Source: Eledone cirrhosa (taxonomy: Eukaryota). From it: DNA of 64,000 bases. The stretch is from the NCBI GenBank assembly GCA_964016885.1, contig OZ024742.1:194556001-194620000 (forward strand). Reading direction: 5' to 3'. The position numbers were made by a program, and so were the translations under genes. Below are positions 3,686 to 54,850 of the stretch, one piece after another (the stretch's first letter is position 1; the number at the start of each line of letters is the position of its first letter). The notes beneath the pieces are model-generated. The model ran no database searches, was not told the DNA's origin, and saw only the letters and a program-made list of their open reading frames with translations.

Positions 3686-5029
3686 GGAAATTGAGTAGGC
3701 GGAAGCTGTTTACAAGCCTTTCGAATGTTCTGTAACTTTAATTCAAATAACCTGCTGTATTCCCTCCCCTACGTGCTAAGTTAAGAATACGTGTCTGTAG
3801 AATGGTATAGCCACTTGCATGTTAATTGTATGAGCAGGCTCCACCGAGAGCACAATTTGTGTCGTCATCTTCGAACAGCGACGGAGGTATGTCGAGTGAT
3901 AACTACTAATACATTGTCTCTTTTTTTTTTTTAGTTTTTTTGTTTAATAGAGAAAATAAATTCTGTAAATAAGATATAAAAGAAATCCGAATGATGAAGT
4001 AGTATTAGTAATAATCAGTTATAGTAAGATTATTATATACTTCAGAGAGACAAAAATAATCTAAAAACCATTGTAGAATTGTGTGGATGAGATACAAGAA
4101 AAAGTGTTCTATACCAAATGTGTATATGCTAATTCAATGAATGACAGAGTATTGTTTTCTTTAGCTCTGTTTTATGTTATAATATGTTCATGTTAATATA
4201 TCTGTAGCTTGTGTGTATCAGGAGAGGGCGGTTGCAAGGAGAGTCTGTGTATGTGTTTTGCTGCAATGTGTTTCTGTAAGTTTGTCTATATATATCTGTG
4301 TGTTTCTATATATGAAACATGTCTGTGTATGTACTGGGTTGGTATGTTTTCATGTGGCACTGTCAATATATTTATGGTTTCTTGTATGTATGACGTGTGT
4401 GTATAGGAATGTGAGGCAATCAGTGTATGTCCTGTGTTGGTTCATGTTCATGCAAGAGTATGTGTGAAGAGTGCGTACTTATATATATGGATAAGTTTGT
4501 GATTTGATTTACTCGTATATAAAGAAGTATTCATATTGATATTATGTTCATACGCTTGTATGTAGGAGGTGAGAAATGTTATATATGTGGGGGGCTTGTG
4601 TTTCCGTTAACTGTATTCTTCTGCATATAAGACGTGTATTTGTATGTGTGAAACGACTGTGTATGCAGCCGTATTTCATATATACGTAAGGAAAATAATA
4701 CATACGACAAAAATAGATTGTTGCTTTCTTCATATATATATCCTTATATATATATATATATATATTGATAGAAAGAAAGATAGATAGATACAAAGAGAGA
4801 GCAAGGGATAGAGATAGATATAGTGAGATAGATATATGTGAGTGCATTATGTATATATATATATATATATATATATATATATATATATATATATACATGT
4901 AAAGTTATATTTAAAATTGTTGGGTTACAACTAGTAAATATTTATAACTAATATAAAAGCACTCGACAAATATTTGGAGTATATTTACAATATTAAATAA
5001 ATGGAAAACTATATTTATAAAACCATATT

Positions 5030-5331
5030 TATTTCACTATATATATTTCGGGGATATCATATTAACAATATGCTATGCCTTCATCAGACAAAATACAATA
5101 TAAACAGTTTTATAGATAAATATATTCGACATACCGTAATAAACATCAACTTCATTTGAAGAGGTTTACGCTAGCAGTCTTTACTGCTAGCGTAAACCTC
5201 TTCAAATGAAGTTGATGTTTATTACGGTATGTCGAATATATTTATCTATAAAACTGTTTATATTGTATTTTGTCTGATGAAGGCATAGCATATTGTTAAT
5301 ATGATATCCCCGAAATATATATAGTGAAATA
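5030..5331. repeat. Fold-back palindrome (149-bp arms, CTTT spacer) of a PLE terminal repeat, flanked by (TA)n
   Basis: 5030-5178 is the reverse complement of 5183-5331; each arm carries a hammerhead motif. Confidence 0.9.
5266..5331 (+). ncRNA. Type I hammerhead ribozyme motif (mirror copy ~5030-5095 on minus)
   Basis: CTGATGA 5274-5280, imperfect long stem II, GAAA 5312-5315, palindromic stem III ATATATAT, wobble-rich stem I. Confidence 0.55.
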
Positions 5332-5940
5332 TATATATATATATATATATATATATATATATATATATATATATATAGAGAGAGAGAGAGAGAGAGAGAG
5401 AGAGAGAGAGAGGGACGGAGTTAAATAGAGAGATATAAACACACTTATGCACACACGCACACACGCATATATGTATATGTGTGTGTGTGAGTGTGGGTGT
5501 GGGTGTGTGGGTGTGGGTGTTTATATATGTGTGTGTGTGTGTGTGTGTGTGTGTGTATGTGTGTATATATATGTATGTATGCATACATATATACATACAT
5601 ACATACACACACATATATATATATTAAATGATTGAGATAATGTGAGAAGAGGGTGTATTAATGGGAAAGAATTCTGGTGGATTATATATATATATATACA
5701 TATATATATATATATATATATATATATATATATATATATATATGTGTGTGTGTGTGTGTGTGTGTGTGTGTGTGTGTGTGTGTGTGTGTGTCTGTGTGTG
5801 TGTGTGTATATATATATATATCTATATATATGTGTGTGTGTATATATATATATATATATATATATATATATATATATATATATATATATATATATGTATG
5901 TATATGTGTGTATATATATATATATATATATATTTATATA

Positions 5941-7475
5941 TATTAGTAAAAGGAAAAGCAAGTGCTCACAAATTTTCCCAGTGAAAAATAGTTTAATTAG
6001 CAATAAATATAAATTAGTAATAAGTATTGGTTAGTATTCAGTTTTAGTTTTAAGTTTGGTTATGCTTTTCAAAAATAATTTTGAGATAGAGCGCTCGTGG
6101 TATTTGCTCTAATCTGATCATTTTTAAAAATTCTTCCTGTTTTATGTGAAAAAAAAGTGGCTTGGAAGCTATTAAGATTTGGTTGGTTGTTGACTGTCAC
6201 GTGAATAAGCTCTATAAATTTCGCGCCAAATCTTGTTGCAAAAATTCTTATAGTAAAAACAATTTTGATTGGTCGCTAGAAGTCACGTGAATGTTTAAAT
6301 TGATTTTAGCGTAAGCTGGTTTCGCGCCAAATGTAGGTTTCCGCTGGACTGACTTTTCAGTCATGTTCAGACGTCAACAGTTCAGGTGTCTATTAAGACA
6401 AATACGTGTGTGTGTGTGTGCGTGTGTAGCAAAGTGGTTCATTGTTGTGATAATGGAAATGAATCGGTCATTAGGAATTTATGTGTACGTGTGTGTGTGG
6501 GGGCGGGGGGGGGGGGGGTTTAACATGTTGAAACATATTTTTCAGCTCTTGTCTTATATGGAGAAGTGTATATGTGTGTATGTCTGTCTGTATGTTAGTG
6601 TGCATGCGCGCGCGCGTGTGTGTGGATGGACCAGTATGTTTGTGGTACTGGTAAAAATGGCGTACATTATTCGATATTTTCAGTCATTTGCAAAAACGAT
6701 TATCTCAAAAGGACATCAATAACATCAATAACACAAGAGGTGAAATGATGTATAGTGTTATCATAACAACAAGGCGCGTGTGTGAGTCCAGATTGTACGT
6801 ACTGCAAGGAGAATCCATTAGGCCCTGCCGTATGGGATACTTGTGTACAAATATCTATGCACCCATCAATGTGCAATACATGTGTGCGTATGTGTATGTG
6901 TGTGTGTCGGCACGTGTATATCTATAAACATCAAAAGGTATGCAAATTTGTGTATATTTGTGTTGCACCATAGAACATGTGTGTTTACGTATATCATTGT
7001 GTTTATATGTGGATAGAAATGTATGTAGGATGTATGCTGATGTAGGTATGTATGTCGACGTGTGTATGTTGTGGGTTAGTCTTAGGAAGAAGTGTTTAGA
7101 CGGGGTCCGTATTTGTTAATAAAGTGAGATTCCTTGCTGATGCGCTGGGTGTGGGTAGCTTTATCTTTAAATTTGTAGAGGGGAAAGATTCTAAAGTTGG
7201 GATGATTTTGGGCGGCACAGCTATCAATGTGTTCACTCAGTGTAATTTTTCTGTATTCCCGTATTTTGATTTGGGATCTATGGGCAGTCATGCGTTGGCG
7301 GGGGCAGTTTTTAGTCTGGCCTATGTATTATCCTCGACAATCTGAGCAAGTTAATACATATATTAGGTTTTCTGATGCGCATGTGAAATTGTGTTTTAGT
7401 ATAAAACGTTGTCCTTGTTTGAAATAGAATTCCGAACCCTCTATTAGGTTGATGCATATGCCACAGTTGTGTCAA
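5941..7475 (-). mobile_element. Penelope-like element 3' fragment (GIY-YIG remnant at 7082-7475 plus terminal repeat); Neptune-like by inference
   Basis: Minus frame: CGIC..HNFTCASENLIYVLTCSDC..YIGQTKN..RQRMTAHRSQIK..KESHFINKYGPRLN, with an internal stop; ends in (TA)n. Confidence 0.8.
6196..6331. promoter_or_regulatory. Cluster of E2F-type (TTTCGCGCCAAA x2), E-box (GTCACGTGA x2) and CCAAT motifs within the PLE terminal repeat
   Basis: GTCACGTGA 6196 and 6282; TTTCGCGCCAAA 6219 and 6320; GATTGG 6267. E2F and CCAAT motifs recur at 7958-8072 and 13253-13386. Confidence 0.5.
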
Positions 7476-53572: not shown

Positions 53573-53604
53573 ATATATATATATATGTATATGTATATAT
53601 ATAT

Positions 53605-54550
53605 ATGTTTTCGGAGGGTCATGTTGCCAATAAGAAACACACGCACCAGTTGCTTTCACTTCAATTTATAATAAATTCAATTTATAAATTGAGGAATTTA
53701 TAAATTTCCGGTTGGTTGGTTCCACAACCAGACGATTGTTCATATATTGTCAAAGCTCTTTCGTCACACATTATGTGACCTCTTCAGTGACTGGGGATTC
53801 TTTTCTTTGTTTTTGTGCCTCTGCTTTGTTCTGTCCTACGCCATCTTGTTTTTGTGTGTGTTGTGTACTTAGTTTGCGCATGTGTTACATCCGGGTGTCT
53901 GTGTGTGTTTATATTAGTTTATTTATTTGTTTATTTAGATGTTACTGTTTGGTTGTTTGTTATATGTGTGTGTGTGTTTTCATTTTGTCCTTAATTGTAA
54001 GTTGTGATGTTGCTATTCCATTCATGTTTTCTATTTAATTTTGGTTGGAGTTCCTTTATGTTTATTGCCTCTGTGATTTGTCTAAACATTGAATTTTTTC
54101 TGTGTGTAGATTCTATTTTTATTTCTAATTCACCCTTATGTTCTATTTTAGCATGTTGGTGGAGTACAGATGATTATTTACTATCTTGAAGCTCTCGCCA
54201 GTGTTCATTTATCCGTTCTCCTATACTACTAGCTGTCTCACCCACTATATTCTTATCTCTACATTATCCTTCAGTACATCTTATGCTACATTTCTAGTTT
54301 TACAGTTAATATGGGGGCTAATTTACAGATTATACATTTCTTACAGGGAGGTCTTTGAAAAGGGTATATATTGCTAATAAGTGTTTTTATGGGGGTACCT
54401 GGTCTTTCTATTATCTTAATATTGAGTTTATGTTTATCTAGGGCCCTTCTAAATTTGTAAGCTTATTCACCCTCCCAAAGCATAACAATATCGGTTTCAA
54501 CACACGTTTTGAGATAAAGAATCTTGCTAAACAAATTCAGAAACGAAATA
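53605..54550 (-). mobile_element. Decayed PLE related to family B (GIY-YIG remnant, terminal repeat, hammerhead at 53749-53791)
   Basis: Minus strand PQINCKTRNV homologous to 14297-14506; GTCA-CTGAAGA-GGTCACA..TGTGAC-GAAA-GAGC-TT-TGAC. Confidence 0.75.
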
Positions 54551-54850
54551 TATATATATATATATATATATATATATATATATATATATATATATATATA
54601 TATATATATATAGGAACGAGTAGGACCCCGACGGCTGAGCTCAGGCCGTTTCGACAGCTAATTCTGGACTAATGCGTCCAGAATTAGCCGTCGAAACGGC
54701 TTACTCGTTCCTATTACCCACTCTACTACCCTAAGTATTCAGTACTTTGATGCGTTATGGTCCACTTGGTTCCTTAACACATTTCCTTCGTTATATATAT
54801 ATATAATGTCTGTATATAAATATATATGTGTGTATATATATGTGTATATG

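Follow-up and report, generated by a model that had tools for sequence, protein, structure and literature searches.

A stretch of 64,000 nucleotides from Eledone cirrhosa (assembly GCA_964016885.1, contig OZ024742.1, positions 194,556,001 to 194,620,000; hereafter the window, numbered from its first letter) is set with hammerhead ribozyme motifs beside (TA)n microsatellites. The reading that we favour, as reasonably probable, is that these motifs are the ends of many families of Penelope-like elements (PLEs), mostly of the Hydra clade, lodged in TA arrays, and that their head-to-head pairs likely arise from both cut ends of an existing array, which would prime at two start sites of one RNA set by predicted hairpins. 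An earlier note on the window had described about 30 hammerheads on PLE ends docked into (TA)n; it overlooked the head-to-head, long-plus-short anatomy of the insertions. That layout, the two ends abutting TA, the pairing rule and the arms that run through an intact hammerhead are all read from the sequence.

Most of the 14 families that could be scored have two fixed 3' ends, 33 to 180 nt apart, with TA after both (family letters are labels made for this analysis). In insertions with two arms, the arms lie head to head with their 3' ends outward, and one arm typically ends at the long site and the other at the short site. This combination was seen in 95 of 100 head-to-head pairs overall, in 82 of the 87 pairs whose outer ends both meet TA (p 3e-19 against 0.5), and in 39 of 42 unselected pairs from the window plus a genome sample, which consists of 79 evenly spaced 10-kb stretches taken from large contigs only (790 kb, 0.026% of the 3.0-Gb assembly). 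In family X the rule holds in 13 of 13 pairs. Family O was left out of the pair counts, since its TA-rich reference gave 6,054 matches. The arms of one insertion exceed the median other copy in likeness in 24 of 26 cases and are at or above the best copy in 15 of 26; the two arms usually appear to come from one source, with unlike arms in the N pair of the window and in one K pair. The use of two different RNAs per insertion as a rule is not supported by the pair counts or by arm likeness.

How the two arms meet bears on where the inverted arm comes from. Among 12 family C pairs, the inner junction is an overlap of 0 to 7 nt in nine, an overlap of 14 nt in one, and a 3-nt gap in two; several junctions (J, K, G, N and one C) are near-symmetric hairpins. 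Junctions of this last kind, together with the near identity of the arms, would suit a fold-back copy, proposed for rotifer Penelope (PMC3846280), in which one complementary DNA (cDNA) or an antisense template primes itself at a palindrome. However, when arms are unequal, each holds sequence absent from the other: a short arm cannot supply the tail, and at L194 a long arm of 106 nt cannot supply a short arm of 1441 nt. A fold-back would also leave the stop at the short site unexplained, and we regard it as distinctly unlikely.

The hammerheads themselves are well represented. For each of the 31 positions behind the earlier count of about 30, a core or a variant of it is present no farther than about 105 nt away; 15 are intact, 9 are damaged copies (13496, 13927, 23339, 24423, 27419, 29808, 30060, 42840 and 53443) and 7 have non-canonical cores. 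CUGANGA and GAAA cores, three helices and a UH cleavage site, which define type I hammerheads, are present at 15 of the 31 sites. A strict type I descriptor matches at 11 (5087-, 5274+, 9151+, 35153-, 35564+, 36246-, 51128+, 51645+, 52352-, 52877- and 53787-), and four further sites keep an intact hammerhead in which stem II is long or stem I has 3 bp (9883-, 18004+, 24071+ and 35857-). The twelfth strict match in the window, 16806-, was absent from the earlier list and is probably a chance match. A second copy of the damaged 23339 element was looked for and none was found. When 14 A-type copies are aligned, the core is invariant except at N7, and six base pairs show changes in both partners, which none of 500 shuffles reproduced, a figure inflated by the relatedness of the copies. 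The intact motifs class as type I hammerheads, and self-cleavage is predicted.

In some families the core is altered throughout. Family K (8215, 20158 and 51906) has GCAA in place of GAAA in 21 of 29 copies, that is, A13C, together with U3-A8, a known active hammerhead variant. Family L (47853) has the core CAGAAGA (U4A) in 16 of 17 copies, which are 95-98% alike, and the subfamily of N found at 12707 has CTGATGT (A9U) in 19 of 21 matches; the few family Q copies seen have divergent cores (33505 and 38153). Where an abundant family has a fixed non-canonical core, either the variant is active or cleavage is proved dispensable. We counted 18 family labels and, since several are related, the dozen or so families previously estimated is a fair figure. 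Rfam and Pfam nearly miss the stubs: Hammerhead_1 was matched once among 150 of the 159 Rfam matches listed, at 35857 and below the gathering score. Other Rfam matches in the window are mostly false matches of microsatellites to microRNA models.

Motif density is far above that of shuffled sequence. The strict descriptor gives 12 matches in the window against a mean of 0.1 and a maximum of 1 in 30 shuffles that keep the microsatellites, and 100 matches (99 distinct sites) in the sample against 0 to 3 in five shuffles. With 188 motifs per Mb against 127 in the sample, and a (TA)n share of about 6.6% against 6.0% in the 79 stretches, the window is typical, not special. Extrapolation from 99 sites in 790 kb yields about 372,000 strict motifs (bootstrap 262,000-497,000). 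Several hundred thousand motifs in one genome exceed the counts that we found in print, which include 9,000 in Xenopus (PMC4209133), 120,000 retrozymes in axolotl and 235 Rfam matches in giant squid.

The association with (TA)n is equally clear. As the earlier note proposed, most motifs lie near an array (28 of 31 within 200 nt); at 13496 and 24423 the nearest TA run is internal to the element, and the true ends likewise lie at most 200 nt from TA. AATAAA often stands between, in 14 of 31 cases compared with 3.8 in shuffles. A TA array of at least 14 bp lies no more than 230 nt downstream of 11 of the 12 strict matches in the window (background 0.19), and by the same test of 76 of 96 in the sample (against a background of 0.13, or 0.23 when matched by stretch). 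CA/TG and AG/TC arrays follow only 6 and 3 of these 96, and a TA array lies upstream of only 22. Relative to background, then, the enrichment is present, is found downstream only, and is specific to TA. The ends of just 15 families adjoin 112 of the 607 TA clusters sampled. At the short site, the template continues with a TA-type match of at least 2 nt in 9 of 11 families (p ~1e-4; G, H, K and N had no usable row, and A, I, J and P rest on one copy each), which indirectly supports the suggestion that TA serves as nick site or primer. In the window, two B-like short ends (15821-15923 and 16524-16623) face one 600-bp compound TA array with internal repeat units.

A further suggestion, that the array is extended during integration, is not supported. 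In family C, the youngest, 12 of 37 ends reach an interrupted array within 8 bp, and three insertions (L082, L228 and L232) have interrupted arrays on both sides; since near-identical copies meet interrupted arrays, those arrays are older than the insertions. Moreover, arrays that adjoin an end do not exceed the others in length (median 38 bp vs 35 bp, p 0.12). These same observations, and an enrichment that is TA-specific and downstream-only against a stretch-matched background, make it highly improbable that the enzyme builds or extends the arrays, or that arrays and stubs merely occur together in unconstrained DNA. What speaks for such an account is that PLE reverse transcriptases (RTs) are relatives of telomerase (PMC4209133), that motif count follows TA content per stretch (rho 0.51), that 23 of the 37 young ends adjoin a pure run of 10-78 bp, and that no empty site was seen: contigs of four sequencing runs aligned to 33300-38700 included none that spans the region.

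A second feature accompanies the two ends. Both ends of a Hydra family are followed, after 6-9 nt, by a predicted RYUC...GAGY hairpin, the two hairpins being look-alikes, and the order along the sequence is hammerhead, short site, hairpin 1, long site, hairpin 2 and start codon. In family C, an RCUC...GAGYRCU hairpin lies 7-8 nt after both sites, the second being present only where the repeat continues into the 5' leader; at the family A long site the spacing is 9 nt. The sequence GAGYRCY occurs in 8 of 15 tails compared with 0.19 in shuffles. The outer stem stays paired where its bases vary (A-U, G-C and G-U; family E has U-A in place of C-G). For four families (A, N, L and D), another hairpin was predicted in advance to follow the long end, and a search found it in two of the four. 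Family A gave 140 matches vs 2 in controls, and all 14 fetched loci enter a Hydra open reading frame (ORF); family N gave 33 vs 0, with 12 of 14 fetched loci entering an ORF. A second hairpin is also seen in C, E and H. By eye, the same motif is present in five of the six published Hydra consensus ends shown. With the entries numbered by their order in the file, the second coral and the second sea cucumber have it at the 3' end, the first sea cucumber has two copies of it at the 5' end, the copepod and the octopus have GGGC variants, and the first coral is ambiguous.

Such hairpins might instead be DNA signals for the nuclease. In that case one end would be RNA-primed, and the short end would result when the nuclease re-cuts or resolves an intermediate at the TA-like short site. 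The short sites do resemble the target, the Poseidon enzyme nicks AT-rich sites in its own pseudo-long terminal repeat (pLTR; PMC11167929), and Craig et al. 2021 attribute the tail to nuclease-mediated resolution (PMC8557442). Yet hairpin 2 lies outside the inserted DNA and keeps the same spacing from the long end, short arms may hold 1.4-3.9 kb that is absent from the long arm, and both tail ends of Poseidon are starts of reverse transcription (PMC11167929). Resolution by the nuclease is thus unlikely.

The proposal that an ORF-less ribozyme stub is the commonest product stands in so far as most insertions lack an ORF; the idea of a dedicated stub does not. Against three query proteins, 33 of 42 paired insertions have no ORF and 9 carry a remnant, and with only three queries, K-type remnants were missed. 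The median insertion is 411 bp long. Inner ends accumulate a little upstream of the core, about 0-85 nt from it (D 20/29, J 8/10, K 6/8, G 4/7 and C 6/15), and we infer that the stub results from copying the messenger RNA (mRNA) leader as far as its start; in Drosophila Penelope, transcription begins within the upstream pLTR. The idea that stubs copy ribozyme-cleaved RNA is rejected: only 2 of 158 arms have their start 3 nt or less from the cleavage site, and 110 extend to the hammerhead core or beyond. Long arms include more-than-unit copies (L227 and L233).

In the favoured reading, the element's GIY-YIG nuclease would cut both strands of a pre-existing (TA)n array, and each DNA 3' end would form 2-5 base pairs with a UA tract that lies 6-9 nt upstream of a hairpin. 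One RT would be loaded per hairpin, with one DNA end at each site and a single RNA. Both cDNAs would then extend toward the RNA 5' end and be joined by short overlaps or by fill-in. The closest analogy is twin priming by L1; here, by contrast, both primers would use fixed sites. Copying would usually end a short way upstream of the hammerhead, where the mRNA probably starts, and give an ORF-less stub. Long arms would require either a read-through tandem transcript or a ribozyme-made circle, an origin of long copies proposed by Cervera and de la Pena (PMC4209133). In vitro, the Poseidon PLE cuts and extends both strands, its two internal starts bound the tail, the ribozyme is dispensable, and a dimer is predicted (PMC11167929).

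Several points weigh against this reading. The rule is broken in 5 of 87 pairs, of which two belong to family P, where the long/short call is probably wrong, and 89 classed ends in the window plus sample have no visible partner, compared with 110 in pairs, so the rule is established for pairs only. Arm likeness could stem from later gene conversion. A hairpin does lie 6-9 nt past 15 of the 16 sites examined, against a random rate of 2%, in a table most of whose rows were picked after the motif was known. The second-hairpin search gave no match in family L, and the three matches in D do not enter an ORF, the two inspected being tail duplications. Families B, M, J, K and P are without the hairpin motif; since B/M, J and K nevertheless obey the long-plus-short rule, the motif is not universal. 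The inner-end pile-ups could mark enzyme stops rather than mRNA starts, and in A, F and L the limits of the reference confound them. Family K has long copies despite its changed core, which argues against a strict need for cleavage. Finally, the Poseidon start site in vitro is the same for both strands and has no homology to the cut DNA (PMC11167929).

More tentatively, as a generalization that is possible and somewhat short of probable, Hydra-clade PLEs across four animal phyla may carry two tandem leader hairpins, each of which would load one RT and fix its start 6-9 nt upstream. Two enzymes would prime from the two ends of one (TA)n cut, explaining both the tail and the inverted repeat, and the hammerhead would decide the product, an uncut linear leader yielding a stub and a cut and circularised RNA yielding long copies. 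Several hundred thousand motifs would have been left in this way.

That the motifs are PLE ends is supported, the families being many and mostly of the Hydra clade. Five motifs had been placed on RT or GIY-YIG remnants, and these are 9883, 12707, 13927, 18004 and 53787; a sixth remnant lies at ~7087-7480 (family K, GIY-YIG). As for the microsatellite-targeting PLE system envisaged earlier, the targeting holds and the single system with a dedicated stub does not, most stubs being truncated products of many autonomous families from two or three clades.

By its motifs, family C classes as a young and intact Hydra-clade PLE, and A and N do so in part. All 40 scored C copies are identical over 261 nt. 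The tandem unit measures 3927 and 3910 bp, and its intact single ORF of 800 residues (from the first Met), identical in L227 (3458-5857), L228 and L233, encodes an RT followed by a C-terminal GIY-YIG domain (domains by eye against a published alignment). The intact ORFs had no Pfam match, and Pfam and PDB sequence searches returned nothing useful; 21 relatives share 28-38% identity. The GxKF/Y position reads RWK in N, RWR in A and RWT in C, and DKT replaces DKG in all three. The C and N proteins have a CxCX5C linker, no CCHH, and CxxC plus CxH around a conserved E and N. The Hydra-clade combination of a canonical hammerhead in the pLTR and (TA)n insertion is present; family C departs from the clade's usual size (<3 kb), which is a tendency and not a diagnostic motif. 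A and N run into Hydra ORFs, and Hydra-like remnants lie near some copies of D, G and L; no ORFs were linked to F, H, I, J, P, Q or X. Words of family C (L227:3000-5900) occur at shares of 0.21-0.69 in sequencing runs labelled with six organisms, and so close relatives of C occur beyond this assembly; no RNA run was among those listed with such words.

Other families fall elsewhere. B/M encode a 1,200-residue protein with CX4CxxC and CCHH motifs and a C-terminal nuclease (the L134 and L135 ORFs), and the family K remnant is a Neptune-like nuclease with a CX2-5CxxC linker and CCHH. By eye, the linker is long in K and reduced in B/M, and motifs compared in this manner tentatively suggest a Neptune-type K and a Nematis-like B/M. 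The B/M ORF (L134 3787-7425 and L135 3769-7419) holds a long Asn-rich insert, like the inserts of rotifer Penelope. Marks of Naiad (an N-terminal nuclease and no canonical hammerhead) were not found, every recovered ORF being accompanied by a hammerhead and having the nuclease in last place. Family E is an ORF-less tandem unit of 525 bp with a hammerhead in each unit (52107-53163; L050 6464/6986); because it retains both Hydra-type hairpins, it is likely moved by Hydra enzymes. A second ORF-less tandem unit with hammerheads, of 467 bp, occurs at L056 5602/6069.

Along the window, the first insertion is a family A (Hydra) head-to-head pair at 4898..5328, with a long arm on the minus strand (core 5087, tail hairpin 4958-4980) and a right arm on the plus strand (core 5274) that ends 6 nt past the cleavage site. 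A family K (Neptune-type) pair follows at 5938..8401; its short-ended minus arm carries the GIY-YIG remnant and its long-ended plus arm the U3-A8 core with altered GAAA at 8215. Next come a long-ended family D (Hydra-type) stub (8990..9274, +; core 9151, tail hairpin 9217-9235) and a family X short-plus-long hairpin stub (9289..9490) that has only the 3' half of the hammerhead and was absent from the earlier list. The family N (Hydra) pair at 9551..12868 joins a long minus arm (core 9883) to a plus-strand body with an RT/endonuclease (EN) remnant at 10696-12039, a short end and core 12707. A long-ended family J stub with a U3-A8 core at 13496 (13436..13665, +) precedes a family M (Nematis-like) copy (13701..15923, -) with RT/EN remnants at 14220-15813, core 13927 and a short end, its opposite end being B-like and short. 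A family N copy (16607..18159, +) has an EN remnant at 16607-17359, core 18004 and a short end.

Farther on lie a family K short-plus-long pair (20009..20436; core 20158 on the minus strand), a hammerhead stub of which a single copy was seen (23329..23520, +; core 23339, stem I damaged), an N-related inverted pair (23891..24219; core 24071 on the plus strand), a long-ended family J stub (24257..24465, -; core 24423) and a minimal family P hammerhead stub with damaged stem II (27398..27536, +; core 27419). At 27644..27895 an inverted pair of a further family, identified by eye and also absent from the earlier list, has both arms starting at or after the cleavage site; one arm starts, by eye, exactly at the family's predicted cleavage site, a lone case. 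A stub with a private U4C change (29803..29897, +; core 29808) is followed by a family B (Nematis-like) pair (29922..30251) made of an inverted tail only (29922-29985, -) and a short-ended plus arm (core 30060), by a family Q copy (33365..34021, -; divergent core 33505), and by a family I-like stub absent from the earlier list (34261..34364, +).

The pair at 35053..35751 belongs to family C (young, intact Hydra). Its short arm is on the minus strand (core 35153); its long arm on the plus strand (core 35564) has the short site after 35661, the tail hairpin at 35669-35696 and the long site after 35751, and the inner junction is an overlap of 5 nt. Beside it is a stub with a canonical small hammerhead (35775..35877, -; core 35857), the site of the one hammerhead match among the Rfam matches listed. 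A long-ended family D stub with TA on both sides (36117..36250, -; core 36246), a second family Q copy (37635..38293, +; divergent core 38153), a family P stub whose end is (CA)n then (TA)n (42812..42964, +; core 42840), and a short-ended family L arm with the family-wide U4A core 47853 (47784..47913, -) come next. The last cluster comprises a short-ended family H stub (51096..51229, +; core 51128), an A-related stub (51635..51746, +; core 51645), a short-ended family K stub (51757..51949, -; core 51906), and family E at 52107..53572, with its 525-bp unit in tandem on the minus strand (cores 52352 and 52877, hairpins 52190-52216 and 52600-52623) and a short-ended inverted plus arm (core 53443). 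A family B pair (53609..54548), with a short-ended minus body (core 53787, EN remnant 54036-54471) and an inverted long plus arm, and a family X short-plus-long stub absent from the earlier list (54613..54791) complete the series.

The window also holds other repeats. A Mariner-type remnant with inverted internal repeats lies at 22342-23012 (Pfam HTH_48), broken transposase-like frames, hAT-like by eye, lie at 55760-57071 (56316-57071 without a Pfam match), and a broken long interspersed nuclear element (Pfam RVT_1; L1/Tx1-like by eye) spans 60870-63455 on the minus strand. A repeat resembling a short interspersed nuclear element is present in at least eight pieces (3132-3684, 30632-30712, 36412-36612, 37169-37360, 38726-38890, 41341-41484, 58149-58319 and 60461-60702); it has very high depth in sequencing runs, and no (TA)n follows the pieces read. 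Another short repeat has three copies (26811-26947, 43152-43341 and 54954-55130). Elsewhere, at L235 7733-8851, a 373-codon frame that resembles a G-protein-coupled receptor by eye lies ~1.9 kb from a family K insertion.

Much of this has precedent. The literature already covers PLE hammerheads, solo stubs, opposite-strand pairs, tails and (TA)n targeting, and the families here add new members to a known clade. The Hydra clade of Craig et al. 2021 (PMC8557442) shares the C-terminal GIY-YIG without CCHH, the CxCX5C linker, RW[K/R/T], DKT, the canonical hammerhead and (TA)n insertion, and the supplement of that paper lists a cephalopod member that prefers (TA)n. It differs in unit size (3.9 kb in family C against <3 kb as a rule) and in the few families reported, compared with the many families and very high copy number here; twin hairpins and the long-plus-short rule were not found in the portion of that paper available to us. 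A one-sided tail has been described qualitatively (PMC8557442, PMC3846280), and the open-licence papers and bioRxiv text available yielded no description of a quantified rule or of twin hairpins. With the Neptune and Nematis clades, K and B/M share the CX2-5CxxC linker and CCHH nuclease, and a microsatellite bias has been proposed for Neptune; the families here are without the Hydra hairpin, and B/M carry the Asn-rich insert.

Minimal PLE hammerheads (PMC4209133) likewise have a short stem I, a palindromic helix III, an extra base after A9 and the U3-A8 variant, and are mostly solo in truncated copies, with some opposite-strand pairs 100-700 bp apart. They differ in number, ~260,000-500,000 motifs being estimated here against those of Xenopus, and the available text of that paper contained none of the family-wide U4A, A9U and A13C cores. 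Green anole Poseidon (Frangieh et al. 2024, PMC11167929) has in common the cutting of both strands, two starts downstream of the hammerhead that bound the tail, and an uncleaved RNA template, which would also hold for Eledone in the favoured reading. Its tails are 30-40 nt long compared with 33-180 here, where TA microhomology and a conserved downstream hairpin mark the sites and pairs use the two sites mutually exclusively. Non-LTR retrozymes (PMC7229834; bioRxiv 10.64898/2026.07.22.740005; LTR, long terminal repeat) resemble family E in its ORF-less 525-bp tandem unit and type I hammerhead; most other stubs, in contrast, derive from autonomous elements by truncation and form head-to-head pairs instead of tandem monomers.

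The origin of the PLE tail, inverted repeats and microsatellite bias was named as open by Craig et al. 2021 (PMC8557442). The genome record now gives a rule for PLE ends, one long and one short, and names RNA elements that would set them; together, the pairing rule and the hairpin ruler make the mechanism testable, and family C supplies a young, intact 800-residue element for the published in vitro assay. For the genome itself, the stubs constitute a large hidden part.

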